DNA from: Planctomycetales bacterium
GTDB lineage: Bacteria > 4484-113 > JAFGCY01
Length of the DNA stretch: 32,000 nucleotides
Assembly (NCBI GenBank): GCA_022646745.1
Contig: CP060262.1
Span: 2,610,001-2,642,000 of the forward strand
Reading direction: 5' to 3'
In this document: piece after piece, positions 5,533 through 23,525 of the stretch
How the letters are laid out: every line of letters begins with the position of its first letter
Position numbering within the stretch: the stretch's first letter is position 1
Program-made: the position numbers and the translations under genes
The notes under the pieces: generated by a model
What the model was told of the DNA's origin: nothing
Database searches by the model: none
Seen by the model: only the letters and a program-made list of their open reading frames with translations

Positions 5533-5600
5533 TGCAGGATCGCCGCTGCTAGAATAGCCCCATTCCACCACGCCTGGCGTGGACTGTGACGGAGCAAAAC

Positions 5601-7660: not shown

Positions 7661-8032
7661 ATGAGCGATCTGCCTCCCGTGATTGATCCCCTTGAAAAGC
7701 AGCAGTACCTGCAGGGCGACTGGTATCCGGCCCTGCTTGGACAGGTGAATGACACTGCAATCAAGCTGGCGCGTATCCACGGGGAGTTTGTCTGGCATTC
7801 GCACGCCGAGGAGGATGAGCTGTTCCTCGTCGTCAAGGGGCGGATGCGACTGGAGTTCCGCAATGGGGTACGGGAGCTGGAGGCGGGACAGATGATCATC
7901 GTGCCGCGTGGCCTGGAGCACCGTCCGGTGTCTGAAGAGGAGTGCCTGATCCTGCTGGTTGAGCCTGTCAGCACCGTGAACACAGGTGACGCTGAAAGCG
8001 ATATGCGGCGGGAGCAGTTGCCAGAGCTGTGA
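7661..8032 (+). CDS. cupin domain protein
   Basis: A small beta-barrel pattern: FVWHSHAEEDELFLVVKGRMRLEF ... GQMIIVPRGLEHRP, which reads as cupin motifs 1 and 2. The ATG at 7661 lies downstream of GGGAGG. The ORF track's TTG at 7628 is an alternative start. Confidence 0.7.
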   Translation: MSDLPPVIDPLEKQQYLQGDWYPALLGQVNDTAIKLARIHGEFVWHSHAEEDELFLVVKGRMRLEFRNGVRELEAGQMIIVPRGLEHRPVSEEECLILLVEPVSTVNTGDAESDMRREQLPEL

Positions 8033-8096
8033 GTAAGTTACGAATTGAATACGTATGTAAAATCTAGATGAACTTTCTCAGGATTGGAAATGAGAA

Positions 8097-8125
8097 TTCA
8101 CCATCTACTTACATTTGTGTACAAT
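8097..8125 (+). promoter_or_regulatory. candidate sigma70-like promoter for the 8159 gene (TTCACC-17 nt-TACAAT)
   Basis: Hexamers at 8097-8102 and 8120-8125 have 17-nt spacing and sit in an AT-rich intergenic region about 35 nt upstream of the ATG. This is pattern matching only. Confidence 0.3.
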
Positions 8126-8158
8126 CGACTTGAATCTGCCCCCTGAATCAGGTGTGAA

Positions 8159-10687
8159 ATGACTAAAAATAGCAGGCTGCTCTCAGCTTTAATCATCCTT
8201 TTGATTGCAGGTGTAATCGGTTCCTGCGTGAATCGTGTCCCGGTACTTTCTACCCAGGAACAGCCAGCGACAGAGCAGCTTGATGAAACACAGTTTCCTG
8301 ATAATGCAGATCAAGAACCTCTGAGTCCTGTTGATAAGCTTGAGTTGCCCGGGATACCAGCTGGTCAGACTGAGCAGTCAAGCTCCAAGCGAAGCAGTGC
8401 CAGCACTATAACCCTTGATGGCAAAGCGCGGGTAAACGCTGCGGGCTCCAATAATCGTGTTTCAGGTAGCAGCTATGTGCTAGCAGCTGATGCTGAGCAG
8501 CAGACGGCCTGGGCCTGGTACACCCTTGGGGGTCTTTCGATTGACAGACCAGTGAACCTGAACGTCAACGTGGCTCCTGCAGCCATTTTACCCGGGGGCG
8601 AAGAACAGCCTGTTTCCTACTACGTCGGTGTAAGCAACTACAGCACTTACCGCTGGCAGTGGTTTGGTCCCTTCGATGCTTCAACGGAGATAGTGCTCAA
8701 TTCCGACGCTAACAGGGAGCGCTATGTCAGTGGAATCGACGTTCCACAGATGCATGCCGTGATCCTGAGCAGTTCCGAGGCCGGCACTGCCCTGCAGATT
8801 GATTCTCTGGAAGTGGAACTGAAGCAGGGATTTAAGTCGACAGGGTATCAAACTACACGTCCAATTAAGATGCAAGCACAAGCCAGCAATACATTGGGCG
8901 ACAAGTCTGCTTCTTCTCTATCAAAAGAACATTACATTACTCTCACGTGGAATTTTATTCCAGATCCTCTTGCACCGGAGAATGAAGCAACTACGGTAAG
9001 GGTAAATCGCCGGCTTGTCGGCGATTCAGTGTGGCAGCCGATAGGAGATGCTAAACTGGGACCAATTAGTGAGCAATATATTGATTTTGCGGATAATGCA
9101 CAGCCTTTTGAAGGCACAGCCGGGCGAACTTACGAATACTTCCTTGGCTTCTTTAATATTGGTGGTTATAATTCAAGCGGAATTATTAGTGAACAGATTC
9201 CCCTTCTACAGCCTCACAATCTTATCGCTACACCTAGTGGAAACCCACATCAGATAACACTAACTTGGGAAAAGTCATCCGACGCTACATCATACGAAAT
9301 TTTTCGTGATACTATTGGGCAACCTTACGCTGTAGTAGGTGATGTGGATTCATATGTGGATGAACAGTGCGGAAATATTCCGCACGAATACTGGGTGAAG
9401 TCCAAAAATGAGTGGAGCGAATCAGCTTTGGATATCTCTGCCATAGGAATTGCAGTTAATTTGAGCAACTATAACTTAAGTACGAACAATAGTTTGTGGC
9501 CACTCTCTTATAGGGTTCACCCTGATGGGAGTTTTGCAATCCTTGTGCAAAGTGATAATTACAGTATTTACAAATCGACCACAACAATACCAATAAGTGC
9601 TGAGGATTGGATTGAGATACCGATTATTCCTAATTCGCAAGGGGAAAACAGAATAGAACCTTTCAATTTTCAAATTGATGACAATGGAATATATCACATA
9701 TGTGCCGTAAAAACATACACAATGGTCCAGGAACCTCCATTGCCCAATCTTAACAAGTTCGAATTATATTATGGCAGATCAATCAACGACAATCCTCTAT
9801 CTGTCGAAGACTGGGAATTTACTGCGGTGGACATTAGTGATGAATTTGAGGAATCGTCGCTTAAAAACCAATTGTATCCAAGTATCACTTTTTGTTGTGG
9901 AGTTCCGCAAATCATGTATTATGAAATCACGCCAAGTTATGAAGCAGTTGATGTAGTTAGATATGCCATTTCTAATGTATATTATCCTCAAAATGAAGAA
10001 GATTGGTCTTTATTCGACTTGACGGAAGAATTTACCAGAGTTCGCCTCCCATTTAACATGGAGGATTTACTGGTTACTGCACTAGATAAGCCGGCTGCCG
10101 TAGTAACCGGATTAGATGCTAATGGTGATTGGAGATTTAGCTATCTGCGTGGTGCAAATCAGAATCCACAGGATCAGACAGAGTGGGAAATTGTGAAAGG
10201 TCCTGTAATGAAAGAAATTAACAATACATTTAGTATCGCAAACATTAATGGCAACGCTGTATGTTCAAGTGGGCAGGTGAGCTTACTGAATGAGAATCCT
10301 ACCGCGCTAATGGAGATAGCCATTGGATTCGACCAGATTAATAGCAGTTCCTGGTTTCACGAAGTGATCTATCCTGCACCAACTCAATCACCTTACGAGT
10401 TTTCACAATGGTTAAGTAAATGGACTGAATTGGATAATTATCAGATAACTAGTTTGATTACACGGACAAATGAGTTAACTCCAACATTCAGAAATAGATT
10501 AATCATCGGAAAGGACGTTACAACATCTGAATCTAGGTGGTGTCAGTCAAACGAGCTGCATACATCAGCTGTTAATGCTGCATTTTGTAAATCTATGACC
10601 CTTATAAACTCCGACGCTATATTAATAGTTACATATGAGTTTAACGATCCGATTCAGACATTAGTAAGTGTCATTGATCTCACTTGA
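8159..10687 (+). CDS. large predicted lipoprotein: shared N-terminal module, two Fn3-like domains, then a low-GC repeat-containing C-terminal half
   Basis: 842 aa with a signal peptide and lipobox (LIAGVIGS|C). Residues about 98-222 are homologous to the N-terminal module of the 19454 gene (YYVGVSNYSTYRWQW versus LYFGIANYATGRWEW). Fn3-like units are marked by ITLTWNF... and ITLTWEKSSDATSYEIFRD. The C-terminal part has foreign-looking AT-rich codon usage. Confidence 0.8.
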   Translation: MTKNSRLLSALIILLIAGVIGSCVNRVPVLSTQEQPATEQLDETQFPDNADQEPLSPVDKLELPGIPAGQTEQSSSKRSSASTITLDGKARVNAAGSNNRVSGSSYVLAADAEQQTAWAWYTLGGLSIDRPVNLNVNVAPAAILPGGEEQPVSYYVGVSNYSTYRWQWFGPFDASTEIVLNSDANRERYVSGIDVPQMHAVILSSSEAGTALQIDSLEVELKQGFKSTGYQTTRPIKMQAQASNTLGDKSASSLSKEHYITLTWNFIPDPLAPENEATTVRVNRRLVGDSVWQPIGDAKLGPISEQYIDFADNAQPFEGTAGRTYEYFLGFFNIGGYNSSGIISEQIPLLQPHNLIATPSGNPHQITLTWEKSSDATSYEIFRDTIGQPYAVVGDVDSYVDEQCGNIPHEYWVKSKNEWSESALDISAIGIAVNLSNYNLSTNNSLWPLSYRVHPDGSFAILVQSDNYSIYKSTTTIPISAEDWIEIPIIPNSQGENRIEPFNFQIDDNGIYHICAVKTYTMVQEPPLPNLNKFELYYGRSINDNPLSVEDWEFTAVDISDEFEESSLKNQLYPSITFCCGVPQIMYYEITPSYEAVDVVRYAISNVYYPQNEEDWSLFDLTEEFTRVRLPFNMEDLLVTALDKPAAVVTGLDANGDWRFSYLRGANQNPQDQTEWEIVKGPVMKEINNTFSIANINGNAVCSSGQVSLLNENPTALMEIAIGFDQINSSSWFHEVIYPAPTQSPYEFSQWLSKWTELDNYQITSLITRTNELTPTFRNRLIIGKDVTTSESRWCQSNELHTSAVNAAFCKSMTLINSDAILIVTYEFNDPIQTLVSVIDLT

Positions 10688-10756
10688 TTTAATGGAAATT
10701 ATCAATAATATAATTAGAATATTAAAATACAAATAAAATTTTCTAAAAGTAGTACT

Positions 10757-10953: not shown

Positions 10954-11487
10954 ATGAGGAGAACCGCGGAAGGCGGCTGGACACGCGTCCTTGCCCTTAT
11001 TCTGGCAGTGCTGGCACTGCAGCTTTGTGCTTCGTGCGGCGGTGGTGGCAAATCCGAAGGCGGATCTCAGGCCCAGGAGCAGCGAACTGTTCTTGAGCTC
11101 AGCCTGAACCCCGTCAGCCAGCCGGATGGCACCATCCATGTTGAACTCAGTGCAACAAATGCCGCAAGGCTCTATCAGCTGTCATCGAGGCTAAGCTTCG
11201 ACAGCGCAGCTGTCCGGCCGCTTGGGCCGGCTGTTCCGGGCAACCTTCCGGCACAGGATGCAATCTTCTACAGCAATGACCGGCAGTCCGGATACATCCC
11301 GGTGGCTTTCACCAACACCAAGGCAGCCGCAGTCGGCCAGCAATCCGGCATCCTTTATTCAGTTGAATTCGAGGTGCTGGACGCGGGGCTCGATCCGCGT
11401 TTTGCCCTGGTCACGGACCCGCAGTACCTGATTGCGCGCGACAATAGTGCATCTGACATTGAACTCTCCGTCGAGGTGCAGCGTTGA
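10954..11487 (+). CDS. small lipoprotein with a single cohesin-like beta-sandwich domain
   Basis: The ATG at 10954 has GAGGAG 4 nt upstream; the ORF track's TTG at 10942 is less likely. Signal peptide RVLALILAVLALQLCAS|CGGGG is followed by a Gly/Ser/Gln linker. After that comes about 140 aa with a cohesin-like pattern (GTIHVELSATNAARLYQLSSRLSFDSAAVRPLG ... GYIPVAFTN ... GILYSVEFEVL). The cohesin call rests on pattern resemblance only. Confidence 0.7.
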   Translation: MRRTAEGGWTRVLALILAVLALQLCASCGGGGKSEGGSQAQEQRTVLELSLNPVSQPDGTIHVELSATNAARLYQLSSRLSFDSAAVRPLGPAVPGNLPAQDAIFYSNDRQSGYIPVAFTNTKAAAVGQQSGILYSVEFEVLDAGLDPRFALVTDPQYLIARDNSASDIELSVEVQR

Positions 11488-14237
11488 TCCATTTGCGCAC
11501 CTCCGTTTCCCTGATCCTGCTGATGGCAGCCATGGCTGTGGTGCATTCCGTCGCCTTTGCCTTCACTACTCCCAGCAATGAGGAGTGGGCAGAACTTGAG
11601 CGGCAGGGAAAGGCTGAATCAACCAGGCAGTGGATGCGAGAGCTTAGCGATGAGGTCAGCACAGTCCCGCAACTGAGCATTGCCGAGAAGCTGCAGCTGA
11701 TTGATGAGGGTTACGGACTGCCGACGCAGATCTTCAGCCCGGGACAGGCGGCTGGTTCGATGCGTGTCAACTTTGACAGCAACGAAGTGATAGACGAGCG
11801 CGACATCCTCGGGATGGGATTCGACTTCACTGACAAGAACGCCTCCACCACCGTGCCGCACGGATCACCGAAGGGCCTGACGATCCTGCTCAAGTTCACG
11901 GACCAGGCACCGACCGACAAGACATTCAACAGCAGCGGTACGCTTGTCAATGATGTCAACCACGATGCGGCCTGGGCTGACAACAAGTGGTACGACCAGG
12001 CTGCCCCTCCGACGATCGAGGACTGCAGCGTTTCCAATTACTACGACGCCAACAGCGGTGGCCGGCTCACACTGGATGGCGATGTGTTCAACAACGGAGC
12101 AGTGTGTGACGCAGATGGCTGGATCACCTGCAATGTGACCCGGGCCAGCATCACGAACTCGACACAGGTGTACAACGCGATCGAGAATGCCCTGCAGCAG
12201 GCGGATCCGCATATCGATTACAGCAATTACGACTCGAACAATGACGGCTTCATTGACGGCCTGACGGTGATCTATGCCGGGGCCAGCAACAGCTCAACCA
12301 TCTTCTGGCACTTCCGCTTCGTTGCCATCTACATGACCGCCGATGGCGTAACGATAAACTCCGGAATCTTCACGGGCGAGCAGGCCCAGGTCCGCATCTG
12401 GTGCCATGAATTCGGACATGAGCTCGGGCTGCCTGATCTCTATGACACCGGCGGATCACCCGCCGTGGACGGTGTCGGCCAATATGGCCTGATGGCGGGC
12501 TGGTACACGGGTCAGGGTACACATCCGCAGTTCATGACAGGCTGGTCGCGGCTCAAGCTGCGTTTTGTTGACCCGGTCGACATTCCAACAACAACTTCGT
12601 TGACGGGATACACGCTGAGCAGGGTCACGCAGGACAATCCGGGTGACACATTGCTTAGAGTGTGGCGTAACGGTGCACCGGGACCGGAGTACTTCCTTGT
12701 CGAATACCGGGACGGCACCCACTCATGGGACTCAAGCCTGTTTGGCAACGGTGGCCTGTGCTACTGGCATATCGATGAAACACTGACATCCGCGATCAAC
12801 CGAGACAACGCATTTGATCCGCAGCGTGTGCACCTTGAATGTGCCGGCTCCAGCCAGGATCCGATGCAGAACGACGCATGCTGGTACGACGGCTTCAACG
12901 GCGCGGATGCCTTTGATTACTTTGCTGACAACACTACTCCGAATGCTCACGACAACGACGGCGATACCACCGAGGTAAGACTAGAGCCGACCAGTGGCCG
13001 CGGTGCCGCCACGATGACGCTCGACATCCGCAACAACAACGGGGCAACCATCCCGACCCTGTCCTTTGATTCTCCGGCAAACGGCGCAACCGTCAGCGGG
13101 GATGTCACCTTTGACGTCACGAGCAACGCAGCCAACCGTGTGGAGTATTTCGTGGATGGCTGCCTCAAGCATGTGGAGAATGGTCCCGGCCCGTACTCAG
13201 GATTCAGCTGGAACACACGCAGCGCACTTGATACATCGGTGGAGCTTCGTGCTGTCGCATACAACAGCAGTGGCAACGACCCCGTGCGCAGCCTGACCCG
13301 CACAGTGACTGTCAGCAACGGCCAGCAGGGCGGCGAGTCAATGATATTCACTGAGAATTTCAACGGCTATTCCAGTGTGACTGACAGCACCCTGCTGAAC
13401 CTCTGGAACCTGCACGATGACAACATGGGCATGGAGTTCCAGCTGCGCACTGACCCGGCCTACAACGACACCGGCAAGGCACTGGCATTCGCCCAGACCA
13501 GTTTCCCGACACCGAACAACGGCAGCACGCAGGACCCGAATGCCGGGGTGTACCAGGGCCAGGATGACGACTGGCTGATGACACCACGCATTGGACTGTT
13601 TGGTTACACTGATGTCAAGTTCAAGATGTCAACCGCATTCCGGATTGACGGAGCCTGGGGCGAAGCGATGCTCGTGCTGCAGGTGTCGGACGATGATGGC
13701 GCTACCTGGGACGACCTTCAGTCCTTCAACTGGTGGCAGGACAGCAACACCCAGTGGTACACGGGCTGGTGGCGAAACGACGGCGGCACCCAGGACTTCT
13801 GGGCGGACCGGACCGTCAACATCGACCCGTCCTACATCAACAAGGATGTCTACTTCCGGTTGCTGTTCATCGGTGGCCGGACCTACAACGTCGGCTTTGC
13901 CGTGGATGAGATCCAGGTGACCGGCACACCGCTTCCGCTTAGCCTGAGCAGCGTCAGCCCTGACCGGGCCAAGGTTGGTGACAGCGTCACCCTCACCGGC
14001 GCAGGTTTCGGTGATACGCAGGGCAGCGGAGAGGTTCGCTTCAGCGACGGAGCCGGTGGCCACGTGGTTGCCAGTATCACCTCCTGGACCAATACGCAGA
14101 TCGTCTGCACGGTGCCAGGTGGTGCAAAATCAGATGCGAACGGAGTCTGGGTCTACCAGAACTTCACAGAGACCAGCAAGCTGGCCTTCACGGTCATCCT
14201 TGCAGCGCCGAATCTCCAGGGATTGGACCAGATTTAG
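11484..14237 (+). CDS. secreted M6-family (immune inhibitor A-like) zinc metalloprotease with C-terminal Ig-like, MAM/choice-of-anchor-J-like and IPT/TIG modules
   Basis: 917 aa. The TTG start overlaps the upstream stop (TTGA), with GAGGTG 5 nt upstream. The signal peptide ends AFA. The zinc site HEFGHELGLPDLYD (12405 onward) is the M6 signature. The C-terminus carries an IPT unit (VSPDRAKVGDSVTLTGAGFG ... SWTNTQIVCTVP). Confidence 0.9.
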   Translation: MIHLRTSVSLILLMAAMAVVHSVAFAFTTPSNEEWAELERQGKAESTRQWMRELSDEVSTVPQLSIAEKLQLIDEGYGLPTQIFSPGQAAGSMRVNFDSNEVIDERDILGMGFDFTDKNASTTVPHGSPKGLTILLKFTDQAPTDKTFNSSGTLVNDVNHDAAWADNKWYDQAAPPTIEDCSVSNYYDANSGGRLTLDGDVFNNGAVCDADGWITCNVTRASITNSTQVYNAIENALQQADPHIDYSNYDSNNDGFIDGLTVIYAGASNSSTIFWHFRFVAIYMTADGVTINSGIFTGEQAQVRIWCHEFGHELGLPDLYDTGGSPAVDGVGQYGLMAGWYTGQGTHPQFMTGWSRLKLRFVDPVDIPTTTSLTGYTLSRVTQDNPGDTLLRVWRNGAPGPEYFLVEYRDGTHSWDSSLFGNGGLCYWHIDETLTSAINRDNAFDPQRVHLECAGSSQDPMQNDACWYDGFNGADAFDYFADNTTPNAHDNDGDTTEVRLEPTSGRGAATMTLDIRNNNGATIPTLSFDSPANGATVSGDVTFDVTSNAANRVEYFVDGCLKHVENGPGPYSGFSWNTRSALDTSVELRAVAYNSSGNDPVRSLTRTVTVSNGQQGGESMIFTENFNGYSSVTDSTLLNLWNLHDDNMGMEFQLRTDPAYNDTGKALAFAQTSFPTPNNGSTQDPNAGVYQGQDDDWLMTPRIGLFGYTDVKFKMSTAFRIDGAWGEAMLVLQVSDDDGATWDDLQSFNWWQDSNTQWYTGWWRNDGGTQDFWADRTVNIDPSYINKDVYFRLLFIGGRTYNVGFAVDEIQVTGTPLPLSLSSVSPDRAKVGDSVTLTGAGFGDTQGSGEVRFSDGAGGHVVASITSWTNTQIVCTVPGGAKSDANGVWVYQNFTETSKLAFTVILAAPNLQGLDQI

Positions 14238-14363
14238 GCGGATACGCTGATGGCAGCGTGCTGCCGTCAAGGGGTGGACAGGAGTGGATAGGATGGGGCT
14301 GGACCCGCCGGCAGGGAGGCAGGCAGGAGTGGCCCAGGTAAGTAAAGTAGGTAGGTGGTTGCT

Positions 14364-15944
14364 ATGAGGAAACTAGTCTTGGCGGTGCTGACCCTGCTGG
14401 TTCTCGCCGGCTGCGGTGGAGGCGGCGGTACGTCCGGCACCGAGATCGTGCAGGTGCCGGCGCAGGAGCAGGGGCTTCAGATAATCAACCAGCAGAGCAC
14501 GGACGGAAACCTGGTGCTCGGTGTGATCAAGGATGCCAGCGGTGTACCGATCGGCGTGCAGATCCAATGGACCCGTGTGGACGTCGCCGGTGTGATGGGA
14601 TACTACATCTATCGAGATACCGCGTCCCTCCCGGGTGGGAACCCGGCCGGACAGGAATCAAAACGCATCAATGGTGGCAGCATCATCGGCCAGAGTGGCA
14701 CAGGCACGCAGACCCTGACCTTTGATGACATCATGGCTCCCCCGCCGTCTATCAATGACCAGTTCTTCTATCGCATGACGGTCGTCAACTCCACGAGTGA
14801 TGAGAGCGACATGTCCAACGAACTGTCGATCACGATCGCACAGCACACGATCACGACTGTCACCCAGGGCGGCGGCAGCATCGGTGACAGCGTGACGATC
14901 AACGGTTCCAACTTCGGCAGCAGTCAGGAAGCAACGGACTTCGTCTACTTCACGAACTCCAGCGGTACTACGAACGTTGAAGCCAATGTGACCAGCTGGA
15001 CCCCGAGCCAGATCATCTGCGACATCCCGTACGGAGCAGCTGACGGCCTTGTCGGTGTCCAGATCAACGGCGTGCTTGTACTTGCCCCGACCGGACAGGA
15101 AATCGACTACAACGAACCGAGCGTCACCAATGTGGCCCCGACCCAGGACTGGGTGCAGAACCTGACCATCGTGATTGACGGTGTGGACTTCGGCCCGGAT
15201 CCGAACGGTGCAGGTACCAGCACAGACGTGCTGTTCGGCACCACTCCGATCCTGCTGACGGACATCGTCAGCTGGTCTGACACCGAGATCCAGTGCAAGG
15301 TGCCTGCGGCTGCAACGGGACTGACCGTCTCGCTGACTGTGGATGTTGCTGGCAACGTCAGCAATGGCACGAGCTTCCTGCTCCTGCCGCACATCGACTC
15401 GATCAGCCCGACCAGTGGCAACACAGGCGTGACCTTTGATGTCTCGGGAACGAACTTTGGCAGCGTACAGGGAACCGGTAGCGTCACCCTCGCGGGCGTG
15501 AACTGCTCCGTCAACAGCTGGGCAAACGGCACGGTCAACGTCACCGTCCCGGCTGCGGCAGTGGATGGCGCCGTGCTCCTCACCCGTGACGACACCCAGG
15601 CTTCATCCCTCTCCGGATTTGACGTCATTCCGGCCATCACCAACGTCTCGCCCAACCGTCGTGTCGAGGGTGAGCAGGTGACCATCACCGGCTCAGGCTT
15701 CGGTGCGACCCAGAACGGCAGCACCGTGACCTTCAACGGTGGTGGTGGAGTGGTGGCCACGAACATCATCAGCTGGGGCCCGACGACGATCGTCTGCGAG
15801 GTTCCGGCCGGTGCATCGACTGGTACCATTACCGTCCACATCAATGACGCCTCCGTCGGAAGTGACATTGATGACGCGACCAGCGGCTCGAACATCACTG
15901 TGATCCTTGCCGCTCCGAACCTGACTGGCGTCGGCCAGCTCTGA
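14364..15944 (+). CDS. lipoprotein: one Fn3-like domain plus four IPT/TIG repeats and a conserved C-terminal tail
   Basis: Lipobox LVLAG|CGGGGG. The Fn3-like unit reads IQWTRVDVAGVMGYYIYRD ... FFYRMTVVN. There are four units of the type P.I..V.P..G..G..VTI.G..FG ... SW....I.C.VP. I prefer the ATG at 14364; the GTG at 14355 is an alternative. Confidence 0.85.
   Translation: MRKLVLAVLTLLVLAGCGGGGGTSGTEIVQVPAQEQGLQIINQQSTDGNLVLGVIKDASGVPIGVQIQWTRVDVAGVMGYYIYRDTASLPGGNPAGQESKRINGGSIIGQSGTGTQTLTFDDIMAPPPSINDQFFYRMTVVNSTSDESDMSNELSITIAQHTITTVTQGGGSIGDSVTINGSNFGSSQEATDFVYFTNSSGTTNVEANVTSWTPSQIICDIPYGAADGLVGVQINGVLVLAPTGQEIDYNEPSVTNVAPTQDWVQNLTIVIDGVDFGPDPNGAGTSTDVLFGTTPILLTDIVSWSDTEIQCKVPAAATGLTVSLTVDVAGNVSNGTSFLLLPHIDSISPTSGNTGVTFDVSGTNFGSVQGTGSVTLAGVNCSVNSWANGTVNVTVPAAAVDGAVLLTRDDTQASSLSGFDVIPAITNVSPNRRVEGEQVTITGSGFGATQNGSTVTFNGGGGVVATNIISWGPTTIVCEVPAGASTGTITVHINDASVGSDIDDATSGSNITVILAAPNLTGVGQL
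14844..15908 (+). repeat. four tandem IPT/TIG-type coding repeats (about 81-92 codons each)
   Basis: Units begin at HTITTVTQ, PSVTNVAP, PHIDSISP and PAITNVSP. Each contains a G.[ND]FG motif and a SW...[IV].C/V.VP motif. Confidence 0.8.
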
Positions 15945-15975
15945 TCTGTAACTTGGACTAGACAGGAACTCTGAC

Positions 15976-17658
15976 ATGAATGGGATTCTCTTGAAGCTGA
16001 CAACTATGGCGATGGGCCTGATCCTGGCCGCATCCCTCAGTTCCTGCGGCGGCAGCCCTGCCGCCAGTGAACTGGCGACAGGGGAATCCCTGCAGTCACC
16101 GCAGCTCCTCGGAGTCGGTACGGGAGACCGTGCCGTCTCCGGGGCGCCTGCGGGAATCTTTGTGACCTGGAACCGCGTGGACGACCCGCGCGTGACGGGT
16201 TACTACCTTTACCGTGACACGGCATCCATTCCGGATCCGCCGGTGGACGGTGTGATCGACCCGGGCCTGCGCGTCAATGGTGGCGGACTGATCGCCAACC
16301 CTGACAGCGGTGCCACGGTGACATTCAATGACATCTTCTCCGTCGTGGTGGGTGAGACCTACTTCTACCGCCTGACGGTCGTCAACCTTGATGGCGATGA
16401 AAGCTATCCCAGCAATGAGCTGAGCTGGACCATCAGCCTGCATACCGCTGGCAATGTGACACCAGACAGTGCGTACTGGGGTAATGACGTAGTGGTGGAC
16501 GGGACGAACTTCCTCAGCTACAACGCGGCCACTGACTTCGTCGTGTTCCCGACATACGATGGTGGCACCATTGAGGGCGCAATCGTGGACTGGCAGGACA
16601 CCGCGATCACTGTCACTGTGCCGGAGCCGGCGGTCAGCGGTCCTCTGGGCGTGCTGATCGATGGTGTGGTTTCCTTCACTGACAACAGCCTGACCATTCT
16701 TAATCCCGTCATAGGGGATCTCGATCCGAATCCGGGTTTTGTCGGCCAGGCTGTCACGATCAATGGCGTCGGCTTCGGGGCCAGCCAGGATGTTGGTGAC
16801 GACCTGCTGTTCGGTGGTGCCAGCTTCACAGGTACGATCAGCAGCTGGTCTGACAGCGCAATTGAGATCGTGATTCCTGAAGATGCAGTTGCCTCGAGCG
16901 TGCAGGTGGTCAAGAATGCAGCCAACAGCAATGAGCTGCAGTTTATTCCCCGCGCGGAGATTCTCAGTGTTGACAACGATGGATTCCAGGAAGGTGAGGA
17001 AATCACCCTGACAGGCCGCCATTTCGGGGCCGTTGAGGGAACCGCCGCCCTTGATGATGCAACTGTACTGACCATCAGCAGCTGGACCGACACGGAAGTC
17101 ACCCTGTTGCTTGCCGGAAGCGCCGGTGCCCACGGCATCATCCTCACGTCAGATGCCAATGGCACAAGCAATACGTTTGACTACAACATCGGTGAGCCGC
17201 TCAGCGTGTCACTGGATGGATTCACGGCTGGCCAGGTCTATCGTCCTGGTGATGACCCGGTGGCCGGGGTGACAACGGCTGATGATGCTGAACTCGTCGA
17301 GCTGCTGCTCGGCGGCAATGTGGTAGCCAGCTCGGATACCGCACCTTTCGAGGGCATGACCCTTGTGATCGCTGACTACATCAATGGTGCCTATGACGTG
17401 GAACTGCGTGCCACACGTCGCAGCATTTCCGTCACGAGCGATCCGATCGGCATCCTGCTCTACTCGCTGGTTGGCGACGTAAACGCGGACGGCAGCGTGG
17501 ATGAACTGGATCGGGATGCCCTGCTGCCACTGATCGTGAACCCGCTGCCTCCGCTGGAGATCATGCCTTGGTGGGACACGGATGAGGATGGTACGGTGAC
17601 CGAGGCTGACCTCAGCCTGGTCGGTTACAACTTCGGCAACATCCTCAGCAGCGACTAA
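15976..17658 (+). CDS. lipoprotein paralogous to the preceding gene: Fn3-like domain, three IPT/TIG repeats, an Ig-like module and a C-terminal dockerin
   Basis: Lipobox LAASLSS|CGGS. The Fn3-like unit (VTWNRVDDPRVTGYYLYRD ... YFYRLTVVN) is collinear with the 14364 product. The IPT units are as in the upstream gene. The C-terminus carries two EF-hand-like dockerin segments. Confidence 0.85.
   Translation: MNGILLKLTTMAMGLILAASLSSCGGSPAASELATGESLQSPQLLGVGTGDRAVSGAPAGIFVTWNRVDDPRVTGYYLYRDTASIPDPPVDGVIDPGLRVNGGGLIANPDSGATVTFNDIFSVVVGETYFYRLTVVNLDGDESYPSNELSWTISLHTAGNVTPDSAYWGNDVVVDGTNFLSYNAATDFVVFPTYDGGTIEGAIVDWQDTAITVTVPEPAVSGPLGVLIDGVVSFTDNSLTILNPVIGDLDPNPGFVGQAVTINGVGFGASQDVGDDLLFGGASFTGTISSWSDSAIEIVIPEDAVASSVQVVKNAANSNELQFIPRAEILSVDNDGFQEGEEITLTGRHFGAVEGTAALDDATVLTISSWTDTEVTLLLAGSAGAHGIILTSDANGTSNTFDYNIGEPLSVSLDGFTAGQVYRPGDDPVAGVTTADDAELVELLLGGNVVASSDTAPFEGMTLVIADYINGAYDVELRATRRSISVTSDPIGILLYSLVGDVNADGSVDELDRDALLPLIVNPLPPLEIMPWWDTDEDGTVTEADLSLVGYNFGNILSSD
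16441..17193 (+). repeat. three tandem IPT/TIG-type coding repeats
   Basis: Units start near TAGNVTPD, NPVIGDLDP and PRAEILSVD. Each contains G..FG and SW[ST]D[ST].[IV] motifs. Confidence 0.75.
17473..17655 (+). other. dockerin module (two Ca-binding-loop repeats) at the C-terminus of the 15976 product
   Basis: GDVNADGSVDELDRDALLPLI ... WDTDEDGTVTEADLSLVGYNFG. Both segments fit the D.[ND].DG.[IV]...D dockerin repeat and have the usual spacing of about 30 aa. Confidence 0.7.
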
Positions 17659-17664
17659 CAGAGC

Positions 17665-19305
17665 TCACCACAGGCCGCTCTGCTCGATCAGGTCGTACTG
17701 GGCGCTGCGCTCGACCGTGCCTGCGGACATCGGCAGGTTGATCTGCATCAGCGCTTCCGTTTCGTCGTCGAACTGCGGCCAGTCCAGCAGGCCATCCGCG
17801 TTCGGGTTGCCGGACCTGGCGAAGTTGCAGAGGTAATCCCCGATCCGCTCGGAAAGCAGTTCGCTGCCCCGTCCATACGCAAGCTTGATCGGGAATGTGC
17901 CGAAGAAGTAGGGCAGTTCTGAGCCATGGAACGTGCCGACACCGGTCAGGCGGGCCGCCGGGCTTTCATAGTCAAAGCGGTACAGCCAGCTTTCAGCACC
18001 GATTGCCTGCATGCTGCCCACGATCTCCCGAGCCCCTGCGCCAAATCCGTCACTGATGAAGCTTGTCAGTTGTGACAATGCCAGCTCCGTATCAGTCGCG
18101 GGGTAAAGATTGACGGCAAGCGACGCATGGATGCCAAAGATGCCGGCCATCATGTTTTCATACTGGTTGAGGCTGCGGAAGCGAAGACCGAGGGTGAACA
18201 TTCCCCCTTCGTTACGCAGCGAGCCCGCCATGACGGGAATCCTGGCCTGCCTGCCCGCAGCAAATACTTCGGCCGGACTTTCCTGCAGCACATAGCCGTC
18301 AATGCAGATACTGTCGTCCATCGACATCATGTTCACAATGTCAAAGTCCGTTCGCATGGGAGACACGTTGCCAGAGCCCTGGATCTCTTTCCAGTCGACA
18401 CTGCGCAGTGCTGGAAAACCTTCCAGTCCAAGACGATCCAGGTTGCGACTGACCCAGTTCTCCCCAATCTCCTGCATGCTCTGCAGGCCGTTACGCGGAC
18501 TGTCCAGTAATCGCAGCCTGTCCGGGGCTCCTCCACTCATCACGATCGCCTTGTCGAACAGGCCCTCCGCCAGGGGACTGCTCATCAGTACACAGATGCT
18601 GACTGCCCCGGCGGACTCACCCATCAGGGTTACGTTCCCCGGATTACCACCAAATTGCCGGATGTTCTCTTCCACCCACTTAAGCGCTGCTATCTGGTCC
18701 AGCAGGCCATAGTTTCCGCTGCTGCCTGTGTCAGATTCATCGCTTAGCTCCGGATGCGCGAGGAAGCCGAGCACACCGAGCCTGTAATTAAAGGTAACCA
18801 CCACATTGCCCTTGGCCGCGAAGGCGCTGCCGTCATAAACGGACTGGCTGGCGCTGCCGTAGCGGAATGCCCCGCCATGTATGAACACGATTACCGGCAG
18901 GTCCCGCTGTTCCACATCCGGAGTCCAGACATTCAGGTAGAGGCAGTCCTCCGACTGCTCCCCCACATCGGCAAACAGCAGGTTGAAAGGCTGGGGGCAG
19001 GACGGGCCGAACTCCACTGCTGGGCGGATGTCGTCCCAGCCAGGAGCGGCCTGTGGAGCCTTCCAGCGTAAATCTCCAATTGGTGCCGCGGCATAGGGAA
19101 CACCGAGAAACAGTTGGCTGATTTCATTGCTTGTTCCCTGCAGCTTCCCCTGGGCAATCTCCACGACTGGACCGCTCGGTGTTTCATCTTCCTGCGCCAT
19201 GGCAGACAGTGGAAACAGCAGTAGGCAGGACAGGGCAAACAAAGCAAGCACGACGCGGTGGTTGCATTCAGGCTGACTTGACCGATTGGAACCGATGTTT
19301 AGCAT
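17665..19305 (-). CDS. secreted type-B carboxylesterase (para-nitrobenzyl esterase / lipase family)
   Basis: 546 aa with a signal peptide ending SAMA|QED. Both family signatures are present: EDCLYLNVWTP, and the serine site FGGNPGNVTLMGESAGA. Confidence 0.9.
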   Translation of the reverse strand: MLNIGSNRSSQPECNHRVVLALFALSCLLLFPLSAMAQEDETPSGPVVEIAQGKLQGTSNEISQLFLGVPYAAAPIGDLRWKAPQAAPGWDDIRPAVEFGPSCPQPFNLLFADVGEQSEDCLYLNVWTPDVEQRDLPVIVFIHGGAFRYGSASQSVYDGSAFAAKGNVVVTFNYRLGVLGFLAHPELSDESDTGSSGNYGLLDQIAALKWVEENIRQFGGNPGNVTLMGESAGAVSICVLMSSPLAEGLFDKAIVMSGGAPDRLRLLDSPRNGLQSMQEIGENWVSRNLDRLGLEGFPALRSVDWKEIQGSGNVSPMRTDFDIVNMMSMDDSICIDGYVLQESPAEVFAAGRQARIPVMAGSLRNEGGMFTLGLRFRSLNQYENMMAGIFGIHASLAVNLYPATDTELALSQLTSFISDGFGAGAREIVGSMQAIGAESWLYRFDYESPAARLTGVGTFHGSELPYFFGTFPIKLAYGRGSELLSERIGDYLCNFARSGNPNADGLLDWPQFDDETEALMQINLPMSAGTVERSAQYDLIEQSGLW

Positions 19306-19453: not shown

Positions 19454-21493
19454 GTGCTGCGTAAGCTCGCATTCGGACACATCACTTTTCTGATCATCAC
19501 AAGCCTGCTGCTACTGGGCATCAACAGCTGCGGATCAGGCCAGGGACAGCTTGAGGGCCAGATTGCAAGCCAGCCCGAAACCACAGACATTTCCCTTGCG
19601 GAATCCACCCAGTCAACCCCGCTGTTCAATATCGGCGGAATCGACGGACTTGACCGGCAGGTCAACTACACCGATGCCGATCGCCTGATTCCCGGCTCGG
19701 ATTTCGCCACGGCATTGCCCAACTCGCGTGTGGTTGCCAGTGGCACTTCAGCTGAGTTCGCTCCTGAATTCGCCCCTGACCTTGATCCGTCCCTGTTGAA
19801 TCCCGCATACTGCGTCTACGTGTTCAACCTGGGTGATTACGATCAGGAGATCCAGCTTGTGTTTGGCGTGTCCGATCCACCGGCGACGGAGGAGGACCTC
19901 TACTTCGGCATCGCCAACTATGCCACTGGCCGCTGGGAATGGCGACAGAGTGACGGCAGCCGCACGCTGTCCCTGACTGAGTACACGAACTACATCAGCC
20001 CCGCCGGCCACATCTTCTTCACCGTGGCTATGACCGGCATTGAGACCGGCAATGTGGATTTCGTCCGGATCGGTACAGGCTTCCCACCCTCGGGATCCCT
20101 GCTGGCGGATGTGACCATCGGCCCCTATCCGCTGACCGTCAACTTCACAGCCAACTTTGTTGATACCGATGGCTACTTCGCGGAGTACCAGTGGGATTTT
20201 GATAACAACGGCGTGATCGATGAGACGACGACCGAGCCGACCCTCGAGCATGTGTTTGAGGTGCCGGGCACTTACATCACACGAGTGCATGCGGTTGACA
20301 ATGACGGGATGGAGGGCACGAACTTCCGCACCATCAACGTCACCGGTGTGCTTCCCCCGAACCCCCCGGAGAATGTCCAGGCAAGCGATGGCACCTATGG
20401 TGGCATCGTGCACATCAGCTGGGATGACCCCAGCAGCGGCATCAACCCTAAGGGCTATGAGATCTTCCGTGCCGATACTGAAAACGGGAGCTATACCTCC
20501 ATCGGTGCGGTCAGCTTCGCCTTCAAGTCCTTTGATGACGATACCGTCTCCGACCAGACCGTCTACTGGTACTACGTCCGCTCCCTGCATGACACCGCCG
20601 GCAACAGCGTCCCGAGCGACTCCGATGACGGCTTCATGGGAATCCTCAACCCGCCCACCGACCTGATCTGCGGGCAGGGACTGCTGCCTGACAAGATCAG
20701 CATCAGTTGGACGCATCCCGTTGATGGCGCGACACCGGAAGGTTACGACATCTTCCGCAGCCAGACCGAAGGCGGCCTCAAGGTCTTCGTTGCCGGGGTT
20801 GACTTCGTCAACTTCTACCAGGACGACTCGGTTCCCGACGGCAAGACCTATTACTACTACATCCAGAGCCGCCGCACCAATTTCAGCAACAGTGACTTCA
20901 GCGAGCCGGCGACCGGATTCGTCTCGCAGCTCCAGACCCCGACAAATGTGGCGGCCAGCGATGATGCCAGCCCGACCATCGTCACCGTGACCTGGACCCA
21001 TAGCGGTGGTTCCCAGGTCCCGGCGGGTTACAACATCTACAAGGCGAATGCCGTTGACGGTTCCTATATCAAGGTCGGCACGGTTGGCTATGAGGAGACC
21101 TGGGATGACGTCGCTGCCACGGACGGGGCGGAGTACTTCTACAAGGTCAGTGCCTACAAGGCCGGCTGGGATGAGTCAGCCCTGAGTGATCCGGATGGTG
21201 GCTATGTCGGTCTCAGTGCACCTCAGTCACTCAACGCCTCGGACGACGAGATTTTCCAGGTGACAGTTACCTGGCTGCCTCCCACGATTGGTCCGGACCC
21301 GGATGACTATGAGATCTTCCGCGCGGACACGATTGATGGAACTTATGTTTCAATCGGTACAACGGTGGACACTGTCTATGTCGATTCCGCTGTCAATGGA
21401 AACCAGGGATACTTCTACTATGCCGTATCCAGGAAGACCGGCTATGTGAACAGCCCGGCATCCAATATTGATGAAGGGTATGCGGCAGACTGA
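19454..21493 (+). CDS. lipoprotein: shared N-terminal module, a PKD domain and four tandem Fn3-like domains
   Basis: GTG start with GGAG upstream; lipobox LLLGINS|CGSG. The N-terminal module is homologous to that of the 8159 product. The PKD unit spans about 20090-20344 (YQWDFDNNG ... GTYITRVHAVDNDG). It is followed by four units of about 95 aa. Confidence 0.85.
   Translation: MLRKLAFGHITFLIITSLLLLGINSCGSGQGQLEGQIASQPETTDISLAESTQSTPLFNIGGIDGLDRQVNYTDADRLIPGSDFATALPNSRVVASGTSAEFAPEFAPDLDPSLLNPAYCVYVFNLGDYDQEIQLVFGVSDPPATEEDLYFGIANYATGRWEWRQSDGSRTLSLTEYTNYISPAGHIFFTVAMTGIETGNVDFVRIGTGFPPSGSLLADVTIGPYPLTVNFTANFVDTDGYFAEYQWDFDNNGVIDETTTEPTLEHVFEVPGTYITRVHAVDNDGMEGTNFRTINVTGVLPPNPPENVQASDGTYGGIVHISWDDPSSGINPKGYEIFRADTENGSYTSIGAVSFAFKSFDDDTVSDQTVYWYYVRSLHDTAGNSVPSDSDDGFMGILNPPTDLICGQGLLPDKISISWTHPVDGATPEGYDIFRSQTEGGLKVFVAGVDFVNFYQDDSVPDGKTYYYYIQSRRTNFSNSDFSEPATGFVSQLQTPTNVAASDDASPTIVTVTWTHSGGSQVPAGYNIYKANAVDGSYIKVGTVGYEETWDDVAATDGAEYFYKVSAYKAGWDESALSDPDGGYVGLSAPQSLNASDDEIFQVTVTWLPPTIGPDPDDYEIFRADTIDGTYVSIGTTVDTVYVDSAVNGNQGYFYYAVSRKTGYVNSPASNIDEGYAAD
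20348..21490 (+). repeat. four tandem Fn3-like coding repeats of about 95 codons
   Basis: Each unit has P.[ND][VL].AS[D] ... [IV].[IV][ST]W ... GY[EDN]I[FY][RK] ... Y[FWY]YY[VI] ... S..D.G[FY]. The units are diverged at the DNA level, so this is not a recent duplication. Confidence 0.8.
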
Positions 21494-22239: not shown

Positions 22240-23523
22240 ATGATTGGACATAGAAGCGGGTTTGCAGCCGTCCTGCCCATGTTGCTGGTGGGATTCACAG
22301 TCGCATGCAATGGACCGCGCTACCAGAAGGCAGAGGAAATGGATACTGCACCTGCTGCGTTCGCGGTCCGGGTGGAGAATCCACGTGAATCAACGGAAGT
22401 TGATTTCCGCGCCCCACTGTCCGGGACAGTCAGCAGCAATGGCCAGGTCCAGCTGGCCTTCCAGCTCAGCGGGAAGGTCACTGAAGTGCTGGTGGAGGAA
22501 GGCGACCACGTGCGGAAAGGCCAGGTGCTGGCTCGACTGGATGACCGCGTCTACCAGGCCCAACGCAAGCAGGCCCTGGGAGCCACGCAGCAGGCAGCGG
22601 CCCAGCTGGAAATGCTCGAAAATGGCAACCGGCCTGAGGAGATAGCCGCAGCCCAGGCTTCCCTGGACAGTGCAAAGGCGGTGCTGGAAAGGACCGGAAA
22701 GGACCGTGATCGGATCCAGCTGCTGTTCAGTCAGGGTGTTGTCAGCAGGGCTGACCTCGACGCCGTTGAGATGAGCTGGAAGCAGGCTTCCGAGTCGGTC
22801 GATGCGGCAAGCCAGCAGCTGGCAATCGCGCGACAGGGCCCCCGTGCGGAGCAGATAGACCAGGCCCGTGCCGCCGTCACAGCCGGCAGTGGCTCAGTTG
22901 ACCTAGCATCAGTACAGCTTGAATACACTCTACTCAGGGCGCCGATGGCAGGTACGCTCGTTGCCAGGCAGCTGGAGCAGGGGCAGACCGTGATGGCCGG
23001 CAGTCCCGTGATGGAGATCGCCAACCTGGAGGTGCTTGAGATCATCACGGAGATCCCTGAGGGCGACCTGCTCAGTGCTGCCATCGGCGACCAGGCAAGG
23101 GTCAGCTTTCCGGCGCGTCCGGGGCTGGAAGCACTTGCCACCATCACAACAATTGCCCCGAAGGCCAGCATGCTGACCCGGGCCTTTCCAGTTACCCTGG
23201 CAATCGAACAGGTTCCGGAGGGCATCGTAACCGGGATGGTGGCACTGGTGTCATTGTCATTCAACGAGAAACCGGGCGGGGTGGTGGTACGTGAGAATGC
23301 AATTGTTGATGGCCACGTATTCGTGGTGCAAGAGGGCAGGGCGGTTAAGACGCCTGTGCAGGTTCTGGGAGACCGTGGTGGACTGGTGTTTGTCAGCGGA
23401 GTCACGTCAGCTGACCAGGTGATTGTCAACGGGCAGCACAGGGTGGCTGATGGTGATGTGGTGCAGGTGGTTGATGCCCTGGGCATCTCGGAAATCACAG
23501 GTCTGGACAGCGAAGGCAACTGA
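22240..23523 (+). CDS. efflux RND transporter periplasmic adaptor subunit (membrane fusion protein, HlyD family)
   Basis: Lipobox GFTVA|C. It has a lipoyl-like hairpin (GKVTEVLVEEGDHVRKGQVLARLDD ... RAPMAGTLVARQLEQGQTV) and a coiled-coil segment between the two halves. It is followed 2 nt later by the pump gene. Confidence 0.9.
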   Translation: MIGHRSGFAAVLPMLLVGFTVACNGPRYQKAEEMDTAPAAFAVRVENPRESTEVDFRAPLSGTVSSNGQVQLAFQLSGKVTEVLVEEGDHVRKGQVLARLDDRVYQAQRKQALGATQQAAAQLEMLENGNRPEEIAAAQASLDSAKAVLERTGKDRDRIQLLFSQGVVSRADLDAVEMSWKQASESVDAASQQLAIARQGPRAEQIDQARAAVTAGSGSVDLASVQLEYTLLRAPMAGTLVARQLEQGQTVMAGSPVMEIANLEVLEIITEIPEGDLLSAAIGDQARVSFPARPGLEALATITTIAPKASMLTRAFPVTLAIEQVPEGIVTGMVALVSLSFNEKPGGVVVRENAIVDGHVFVVQEGRAVKTPVQVLGDRGGLVFVSGVTSADQVIVNGQHRVADGDVVQVVDALGISEITGLDSEGN

Positions 23524-23525
23524 GC

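Follow-up and report, generated by a model that had tools for sequence, protein, structure and literature searches.

Cohesin-dockerin pairs from organisms other than cellulolytic bacteria have long been catalogued; most of them count as orphans whose partner and role are not known. The locus described here, a small and self-contained system in which the genes for partner, enzyme and anchor are neighbours in several uncultured lineages, raises the question of what such a pair does. We argue that, in this case, the cohesin-dockerin parts familiar from the complexes that degrade cellulose probably serve to keep a protease at the cell envelope. Within the window (the whole stretch of 32,000 nucleotides that was analysed), four ORFs follow one another on the + strand: g1 (10954-11487, 177 aa), g2 (11484-14237, 917 aa), g3 (14355-15944, 529 aa) and g4 (15976-17658, 560 aa). 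The original prediction had described four packed same-strand genes with spacings of -4, about 126 and 31 nt. The four ORFs and the first and last of these values were recovered, but the middle one was not: the g2-g3 gap is 117 nt when counted from the GTG start of g3 and 123 nt from an ATG two codons downstream. The -4 nt spacing between g1 and g2 corresponds to a stop/start overlap, in which the TTG start of g2 shares the sequence TTGA (11484..11487, + strand) with the TGA stop of g1, an arrangement indicative of translational coupling. Scans for transcription signals are uninformative for this uncultured phylum: terminators were not enriched (4 observed vs 4.6 expected) and promoter-like sites upstream of g1 were found only in a low-GC insert. 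A repeat search around this low-GC island did not find flanking repeats.

All four products had been proposed to be exported, and signals of the appropriate types can be read in each. Lipobox-like motifs ending in Cys are present in g1 (LCAS/C28-GGGG; signal peptide and lipobox at 10954..11037, + strand), g3 (VLAG/C20-GGGGG) and g4 (SLSS/C24-GGS). The g1 lipobox is atypical, with a Cys at -3; Cys28 is nevertheless the sole invariant column in the alignment of the 48-member g1 family (48/48). The g2 product has no lipobox and carries a signal-peptidase-I-type site, AFA/F. These assignments extend to the homologues: in each lineage examined, the counterparts of the cohesin, g3 and g4 have a lipobox-like motif (the regular expression missed two of these, which were read by eye), and none of the M6 orthologues examined has one. 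On the basis of these motifs, g1, g3 and g4 are predicted lipoproteins, and g2 alone lacks a lipid anchor.

The g1 product had been described as cohesin-like, and its identity was the least accessible by direct comparison. By itself, g1 matched no Pfam family at E<=0.1, the NCBIfam scan was also without a cohesin match, and phmmer against the PDB yielded only a match to cohesin 6kg8 at E=0.47. The predicted structure was more informative. The AF2 model of residues 45-177 (11086..11484, + strand) has the 9 strands of a cohesin fold with pLDDT >90 throughout, and all of the top 50 Foldseek matches in the PDB are cohesins, the best being 6kgc_A (3.5e-8, TMt 0.73); TM values (target) against PDB cohesins reach 0.76. 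A profile built from the 9 closest g1 homologues retrieved no cohesin from the PDB sequences, only signal-peptide noise, and a wider, 48-member profile was therefore needed. This profile, which includes g1, matches solved type I and type II cohesins (1.5e-9 to 1e-3). Among the 48 small g1 relatives, 38 match PF00963 (best 5.8e-13), some of them weakly, while 10 have no match at E<=0.01; the homologue from locus L019 scores 25.1 bits vs the cutoff of 24.1. When the g1 profile reached larger proteins, the matched regions were PF00963 domains (51-132 bits), and several of these proteins also carry a Dockerin_1 match in the same chain. The cohesin assignment is thus upheld by the fold and by the family profile, although g1 has no direct Pfam match. 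Taken together, these results indicate that g1 consists of a predicted lipid anchor, a flexible linker (16 residues, rich in Gly, Ser and Gln, joining the predicted lipidated Cys to the folded domain) and one type-I-like cohesin, for which a dockerin partner is predicted. They also delineate a family of small cohesin lipoproteins, part of which escapes Pfam.

A candidate for this partner lies at the end of the same block. The g4 product (15976..17658, + strand) is a predicted lipoprotein comprising an IPT array (TIG, 41.5 bits), an Ig-like module and a C-terminal dockerin (residues 500-555; 17473..17640, + strand); 31 homologues of it were found. The two predicted Ca loops, GDVNADGSVDELD (17476-17511) and DTDEDGTVTEAD (17575-17610), are DxNxDG-type, 12-residue motifs at the extreme C-terminus and start 33 residues apart, at nt 17476 and 17575. 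Both are invariant in the UBP7 orthologues, and the loop pair is kept in 20 orthologues. The dockerin aligns end-to-end with the solved type I dockerins 1daq, 2mte and 2ccl_B (E ~0.02), and in the AF2 model of residues 400-560 a helix follows each loop (positions 111-122 and 144-148 of the model), with pLDDT of 72-85 over the dockerin. The Foldseek search with this model did not recover a dockerin fold because the preceding Ig module dominated it, the top 50 matches (Ig/Fn3-like) aligning to that module only. The g4 C-terminus had been called a textbook two-segment dockerin: the tandem loop-helix pair agrees with this description, but the window sequence itself falls under the Dockerin_1 (PF00404) cutoff, with 21.1 bits against 22.9. 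Two orthologues exceed the cutoff (L001, 26.4 bits; L014, 27.2 bits) and the others score 18.7-20.9. We conclude that g4 ends in a two-loop dockerin that is predicted to bind Ca. The module that directly precedes it (residues 409-495; 17200..17460, + strand) is modelled as an Ig-like, X-module-like beta-sandwich with pLDDT of 92-97, and its best Foldseek match is the X1/Fn3-like module of C. thermocellum CbhA (3pdg, 2.6e-5).

The g3 product (14355..15944, + strand) is a predicted lipoprotein with four IPT/TIG domains (TIG, 119 bits). Matches to the Pfam IPT/TIG family number four in g3 (7e-35) and two in g4 (1e-10), and g2 has a single one at its C-terminus. Over ~400 aa, g3 and g4 share 30-33% identity, and g3 orthologues are 74-79% identical. 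The description of the two as paralogous Fn3+IPT lipoproteins is therefore retained for the paralogy and for the IPT domains but not for Fn3, since Pfam fn3 has no match at E<=0.1 in the N-terminal modules of either protein.

The only enzyme of the block is encoded by g2 (11484..14237, + strand), a predicted secreted zinc metalloprotease of the M6 (InhA-like) family. As anticipated in the original prediction, g2 passes both curated cutoffs (Peptidase_M6 PF05547, 45.9 bits, cutoff 22; TIGR03296, 134 bits, cutoff 110.8), and its zinc-binding and catalytic motif HEFGHELGLPDLYD (residues 308-321; 12405..12446, + strand) has the HExxHxxGxxD pattern, which is intact in 12/12 M6 homologues examined. 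Downstream lie a Big_7 Ig-like domain (residues 524-588; 13053..13247, + strand; 29.4 bits vs cutoff 24.1) and a C-terminal IPT/TIG domain (residues 820-898; 13941..14177, + strand; 28.9 bits), the latter being a paralogue of the final IPT domain in g3. Hence g2 is an M6 protease with an intact catalytic motif and predicted proteolytic activity.

Does the locus encode a small cellulosome-like, carbohydrate-degrading complex? A cohesin, a dockerin and an Ig module resembling CbhA X1 are classic cellulosome parts. However, Pfam and NCBIfam detected no significant GH or CBM family in the four products or in the neighbours at any examined locus, as the original prediction had noted for the block; cohesins occur singly, no multi-cohesin scaffoldin accompanies them, and the sole enzyme is a protease. 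As GH, CBM and multi-cohesin scaffoldin are all lacking, a carbohydrate-degrading role is effectively refuted, in line with the non-carbohydrate function proposed from the window.

We then considered how far the block is conserved. It recurs in about eight uncultured lineages and is kept at g4 identities of 73-81%, 41-51% and ~32%, that is, far beyond close relatives. Synteny among the close UBP7 relatives was discounted because their entire neighbourhood is collinear, and the argument rests on the distant loci. The genes next to the block encode S9 or S8 peptidases and an esterase. These data bear on the possibility that the four products are merely co-located exported proteins that form no complex, the cohesin and the dockerin pairing elsewhere and the synteny reflecting co-regulation of envelope genes. 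Such an explanation would fit the UBP7 relatives, where wholesale synteny makes the conservation of the block say little, and some uncultured lineages are rich in dockerins and cohesins (PMC8542988). We nevertheless consider it improbable, as (i) between distant lineages the block survives completely different flanking genes, (ii) in L022 it is intact despite an inverted cohesin-M6 pair, (iii) no dockerin loops other than GDVNADGSVDELD and DTDEDGTVTEAD turned up when the window and five related loci were translated in six frames, and (iv) in L019 a dockerin is fused to the very protein with which the cohesin is coupled. In L019 the system comprises just two genes, for a cohesin and an M6 protease, and lacks g3 and g4; the L019 protease ends in the C-terminal region otherwise found in g4, including the dockerin (28.5 bits vs 22.9).

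Comparison of the loci also revealed that the tightest conserved link is that of the cohesin to the protease, not of the cohesin to g4, a feature that had been missed from the window sequence. The cohesin stop overlaps the M6 start as [A/G/T]TGA at 18/19 cohesin-M6 junctions, usually with a purine-rich GAGG/GGGG-type stretch 8-9 nt upstream (GAGGTG in the window) that sits within conserved Glu-Val codons. The pair persists in distant members. All M6 paralogues, among them those of a and b type (24-28% identity to g2), have their own coupled cohesin: L023 has one such pair for each of its two paralogues, and L022 one for the b-type only, whose protease carries an InhA-like MAM domain. As each M6 paralogue has its own coupled cohesin while there is one dockerin protein per locus, these data hint that the primary partner of the cohesin may be the protease. 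In addition, g4 is itself a predicted lipoprotein, and binding to g1 would thus fix it at both ends, the benefit of which is not obvious.

One way to account for this link is that the cohesin lipoprotein acts directly on the co-translated M6 protease as an anchor, a chaperone or an inhibitor. The cohesin would bind the tail, the IPT module or the catalytic domain of the protease, and the g4 dockerin would bind elsewhere or at a second site. The status of the pair as the most conserved unit of the system is in keeping with such a direct action, as are the faster divergence of g1 (51-58% identity, compared with 73-81% for g2-g4) and the fact that the protease alone is unanchored. However, the coupled protease of L019 has a bona fide dockerin in place of its tail, as a conventional cohesin-dockerin contact predicts, and the dockerin is never missing: both cohesin and dockerin are present in 11/11 loci with enough sequence. 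Moreover, we know of no cohesin that binds a non-dockerin peptide or inhibits a protease. We regard direct action as unlikely.

A second feature that had been overlooked is a C-terminal tail shared by g2 and g3. The last residues of g2, AAPNLQGLDQI (14202..14234, + strand), correspond to an orphan first (A) strand of an IPT domain and are in register with the motif at the junctions between IPT domains; sequence comparison identified the same motif at the end of g3 (AAPNLTGVGQL; 15909..15941, + strand). It was found in 21 of 752 ORFs, every one of them an M6 or g3 homologue, and it is kept in all M6 homologues but that of L019. The protease may join the assembly by means of this tail. A more specific version, which we put forward as speculative and rather doubtful, is that the tail is an assembly device, a donor strand or peptide ligand that would plug into g4, into g3 or into a second face of the cohesin. 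If so, two different contacts, dockerin and tail, would allow a lipid-anchored mono-cohesin to organise a protease complex, and an enzyme would be recruited to a cohesin-based assembly without a dockerin. This would also explain why each M6 paralogue has its own cohesin.

The domain identities, the types of export signal read as motifs, the order and coupling of the genes, their co-occurrence across lineages and the M6-dockerin fusion lead us to favour, with moderate confidence, a conserved cohesin-dockerin module that is non-cellulosomal, belongs to the cell envelope and is built around a protease. In this model, the stop/start overlap would lead to the production of g1 in a fixed ratio with g2; the g1 cohesin would most likely bind the g4 dockerin in a Ca-dependent manner; the lipid-anchored g1-g4 assembly would keep the g2 protease at the envelope; and g2 would probably be recruited through the C-terminal IPT-plus-tail module that it has in common with g3. 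The cohesin-dockerin contact, the mode in which the protease joins, the membrane, and the side of it, that the assembly faces, and the substrate are elements that we infer. Envelope-tethered proteolysis would be one possible answer to the question of what non-cellulosomal cohesin-dockerin pairs do. The compactness of the locus and the existence of a natural two-gene version make this role testable with two or four recombinant proteins, and small orthogonal cohesin-dockerin pairs would be useful as protein-engineering parts.

Among known systems, single-cohesin surface anchoring proteins offer a close architectural parallel. C. thermocellum OlpA and OlpC (PDB 3ul4 and 4dh2, both found among the g1 fold matches) resemble g1 in displaying one type-I-like cohesin on an envelope anchor without a multi-cohesin scaffoldin. 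They hold an individual dockerin-bearing protein at the surface, as is predicted for g1. They differ from g1 in that (i) they are attached to a Gram-positive wall by SLH domains, whereas the g1 anchor is a predicted N-terminal lipid, (ii) their partners are glycoside hydrolases, whereas g1 is predicted to pair with an IPT lipoprotein, an M6 protease or both, and (iii) g1 shares an operon with a protease and is coupled to it in translation. The sequences are only 11-22% identical. The Archaeoglobus fulgidus cohesin 2xdh and the Clostridium perfringens cohesin-like module 2jh2 were also strong fold matches (ranks 6 and 19). Like g1, they are non-cellulosomal modules from organisms that do not degrade cellulose, but they differ from the g1 system in carrier proteins, lineage and anchoring. 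Non-cellulosomal cohesin-dockerin modules were reportedly covered by the survey of Peer et al. in 2009 (cited in PMC8542988). To our knowledge, no lipoprotein cohesin that is coupled to an M6 protease has been described among such modules. On the side of the enzyme, Bacillus thuringiensis InhA and Vibrio cholerae PrtV share with g2 the HExxHxxGxxD catalytic domain and Ig-like accessory domains. The characterised M6 peptidases that we know of are released or associated with spores or vesicles, and none has a cohesin partner. Unlike InhA and PrtV, g2 has a C-terminal IPT domain and tail (in L019, a dockerin instead) and comes with a lipoprotein cohesin to which it is obligately coupled.

The reuse of cohesin-dockerin pairs to organise enzymes other than cellulases has a precedent in the amylosome of Ruminococcus bromii (PMC4611034). 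That system differs from the one in the window in belonging to a Firmicute, in degrading starch and in using multi-cohesin scaffoldins (PMC4611034). A cellulosome-like complex with dockerin-bearing peptidases has been predicted from MAGs of Ca. Stygibacter (Cloacimonadota); it includes S8 and C25 peptidases as well as GHs, its genes are not in one operon, and its scaffoldin is a 3,755-aa, multi-cohesin, CBM-bearing protein with a T9SS-type C-terminal domain (PMC8542988). As here, the organism is uncultured, dockerins are found on peptidases, and a protein-degrading cohesin-dockerin assembly has been proposed in silico. However, whereas the Ca. Stygibacter complex has this large scaffoldin (PMC8542988), the system described here has one cohesin, no CBM, a predicted lipid anchor and an M6 protease, all encoded in a tight operon.

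The block consists of four same-strand ORFs, as had been proposed: g1 (10954-11487, 177 aa), g2 (11484-14237, 917 aa), g3 (14355-15944, 529 aa) and g4 (15976-17658, 560 aa). The outer spacings of -4 and 31 nt agree with the original prediction, whereas the middle one, put there at about 126 nt, is 117 nt. All four products are predicted to be exported, as previously read: g1, g3 and g4 have Cys-ending lipobox-like motifs followed by Gly-rich linkers, and g2 a signal-peptidase-I-type signal without lipobox. In each lineage examined, a lipobox-like motif is present in the cohesin, g3 and g4, and never in the M6 protease (those of L023_coh1 and L024_g3 were missed by the regex and picked out by eye). 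The protease, alone in lacking a lipobox, is therefore the only component whose retention at the envelope would depend on contact with another protein.

The expected M6 peptidase and TIG domains were recovered: g2 scored above curated cutoffs with Pfam PF05547 (45.9 bits, cutoff 22) and NCBIfam TIGR03296 (134 bits, cutoff 110.8) and carries a Big_7 Ig domain and a C-terminal IPT/TIG domain, and Pfam identified four IPT/TIG stretches in g3 and two in g4. As the HExxHxxGLPDxYD motif is kept in 12/12 M6 homologues, the protease is predicted to be active. In the MAG AC1.30 (L008, 10537-13310), the g2 orthologue is split into five ORFs next to intact g1, g3 and g4, either by a run of assembly frameshifts or as a pseudogene. 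Pfam and NCBIfam scans of the four products found no significant glycoside hydrolase or CBM family, in line with the initial reading. A carbohydrate-degrading cellulosome is effectively excluded. The earlier 'Fn3' label was not verifiable; this label aside, the ORF layout, export motifs and Pfam/NCBIfam results show that the sequence had been accurately described.

g1 alone matched no Pfam or NCBIfam family and gave a weak full-length alignment with the C. acetobutylicum cohesin 6kg8 (E=0.47); a profile built from eight close homologues retrieved no cohesin. An AlphaFold2 model built on the alignment of those homologues has nine strands and a pLDDT above 90 at residues 45-177, and every one of its top 50 Foldseek hits in the PDB is a cohesin, which bears out the claimed fold. 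These span types I and II, a non-cellulosomal A. fulgidus cohesin and a C. perfringens cohesin-like module, the best being 6kgc_A (E=3.5e-8, target TM 0.73, 22% identity). When 1.84 billion representative proteins were searched exhaustively by profile, 76 g1 relatives emerged, most of 165-210 aa and with the same layout. Among 48 aligned relatives, the lipobox Cys is the sole invariant column and 38 match Pfam Cohesin, so that the expected HMM assignment holds for the relatives but not for g1 itself; the 48-member profile, g1 included, matched solved cohesins with E=1.5e-9. In larger proteins matched by the g1 profile, the matched region coincides with PF00963 domains (51-132 bits), and several of these chains also have a Dockerin_1 match. 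The fold matches, the relatives' Pfam matches and the 48-member profile together indicate that g1 belongs, as a divergent member, to a family of small proteins with a lipid anchor and a single cohesin; it is nearer type I than type II. Twelve stretches of P0023, a 1,700-aa protein of the representative library encoded outside the window, match the g1-family profile; Pfam detects only Y_Y_Y and FlgD_ig in it and no Cohesin domain, and the protein could represent a giant scaffoldin with many cohesins that the Pfam model misses.

The two-segment dockerin claimed for the g4 C-terminus is supported by two 12-residue Ca-loop motifs, DVNADGSVDELD and DTDEDGTVTEAD, kept in 20 orthologues. Their starts lie 33 residues apart, the usual type I dockerin spacing, and the window and five related loci scanned contain no further such loops. 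By Pfam, Dockerin_1 on residues 500-549 (21.1 bits) falls just below the 22.9 cutoff in the window, whereas orthologues exceed it (L001, 26.4 bits; L014, 27.2 bits). Over its full length, a profile of this region aligns with the solved dockerins 1daq, 2mte and 2ccl_B (E ~0.02), and equally well with generic EF-hand pairs. An AlphaFold2 model of residues 400-560 (pLDDT 85.5, pTM 0.76) has an Ig-like sandwich and, behind it, two loop-helix units; as its Foldseek matches are confined to the Ig module (best, CbhA X1 module 3pdg), the dockerin fold stands as a prediction of the model. The Ig module packed against the dockerin resembles X-module-dockerin dyads.

The closest relatives are MAGs labelled UBP7, one of which, HKST-UBA01, is 94% identical to the window at the nucleotide level in shared parts. 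A saline activated-sludge study (PMC8495973) describes three UBP7 MAGs without using HKST names; linking it to the HKST MAGs is our guess. Identity to UBP7 relatives is 51-58% for g1 versus 73-81% for g2-g4, and the four genes are conserved, but so are the flanks, which makes this synteny uninformative. The predicted block is also kept in distant lineages: in L014 and L017, the complete four-gene set (41-51% identity) stands among different neighbours, and L024 retains it with g4 at ~32% and an S8 peptidase adjoining. On five short contigs (L011, L015, L016, L018, L021), an M6 gene begins after the cohesin, and cohesin and dockerin are both present in all 11 loci with enough sequence. In L022, the cohesin-M6 pair is inverted yet still adjacent to g3-g4; only the b-type pair is present, convergent with g3-g4. 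In L023 (GCA_016932385.1, JAFGCY010000033.1, 3983-14536), a single g3-g4 pair lies between two cohesin-M6 pairs, one a-type on the + strand and one b-type, with an M6 of 1,109 aa, on the - strand.

L019, on a 217-kb contig, has a two-gene variant. Its cohesin is above the Pfam cutoff (25.1 vs 24.1 bits) and overlaps a 1,049-aa M6 whose alignment with g2 covers residues 1-847; next comes a stretch homologous to g4 (residues 340-555), which ends in a dockerin above cutoff (28.5 vs 22.9 bits); no g3/g4 homologue lies within 10 kb. The dockerin is thus on the cohesin's own translationally coupled partner, and this fusion is the strongest indirect support for joint action of cohesin, dockerin and protease. 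Together with a linkage that tolerates inversion, it argues against mere co-location of genes without any complex, which we consider improbable. The best-supported model, and a reasonably probable one, is that the lipid-anchored cohesin would bind the dockerin in a Ca-dependent manner, the resulting assembly holding the M6 protease at the envelope. Because cohesin and M6 remain strictly coupled one to one, even where M6 is duplicated with one dockerin protein, the main alternative is that the cohesin might work directly on the protease coupled to it, anchoring it via the tail or serving as chaperone/inhibitor; this is rather unlikely, and the two readings are not mutually exclusive.

In 18/19 junctions, the cohesin stop and the M6 start share an [A/G/T]TGA overlap, with a purine-rich GAGG/GGGG-type stretch usually within conserved Glu-Val codons of the cohesin. 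In the window (11463-11487; equivalents in 18 other loci), the C-terminal Glu-Val codons read GAGGTG; the purine-rich stretch is Shine-Dalgarno-like and lies 8-9 nt before the overlapping M6 start. Conservation of Glu-Val in the cohesin family may partly reflect this translation signal.

g2 and g3 end in ...VILAAPNLQGLDQI and ...VILAAPNLTGVGQL, respectively. The motif P-x-[IL]-x-x-[LVA]-x-Q-[LI]-COOH ends 21 of 752 long ORFs from 12 loci, all 21 being M6 or g3 homologues. In most of the lineages examined, M6 and g3 have similar tails, with common cores NLxG (UBP7), [SV]IDDL (L014, L017) and NLGG (L024); the likeness is looser in L023 (SIDGL, VIDDL, DITDL), and the two tails differ in L022. The tail aligns in register with the junction P-x-[IVL]-x-x-[IV]-x-P at the opening of each g3/g4 IPT domain, and the chain ends immediately behind it; the tail is therefore an orphan first IPT strand. 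It may be (i) a structural cap, the similarity resulting from gene conversion between paralogous terminal modules, or (ii) a donor strand or ligand. A role as the protease's attachment device fits L019, in which IPT and tail are exactly the part exchanged for Ig and dockerin.

Immediately upstream of g1, a 40% GC island (8002-10751) in the ~60% GC window holds one gene (8159-10687) for an 842-aa putative lipoprotein without Pfam/NCBIfam match. The closest relative, L007 (94% nt identity), lacks it, other relatives carry a cupin gene at this position, and a search found no flanking repeats; the island looks like a recent strain-specific insertion. Other exported or serine peptidases are encoded a short way upstream of the module, in the window (UBP7; 5586-7625) an S9 prolyl-oligopeptidase-type protein with PD40 repeats and in L024 (1-3186) an S8 peptidase; they indicate a local proteolytic theme. 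Downstream, a secreted carboxylesterase gene (17665-19305, - strand; COesterase 2e-109) converges on g4 across 6 nt and is followed by a PKD/Fn3 putative lipoprotein gene (19454-21493, + strand); UBP7 relatives keep both, whereas distant lineages do not. An AcrB-type RND pump (1.5e-189) and an HlyD-type membrane-fusion protein encoded at 22240-26597 suggest a two-membrane (diderm) envelope, which bears on lipoprotein location: the assembly would face either the periplasm or the outside.

The literature searched contained no paper on 'immune inhibitor A' together with cohesin and dockerin, and P0001, a 97%-identical g1 homologue, is annotated by NCBI as a hypothetical protein. Ruminococcus flavefaciens is known to have peptidases with dockerins (PMC2930009), Cloacimonadota MAGs have been inferred to encode a cellulosome-like complex that includes S8 and C25 peptidases (PMC8542988), and amylosomes use cohesin-dockerin modules outside cellulolysis (PMC4611034). 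On these grounds, we rate the block as a variant of known modules: a minimal, operon-encoded, lipid-anchored cohesin-dockerin module around an M6 protease.
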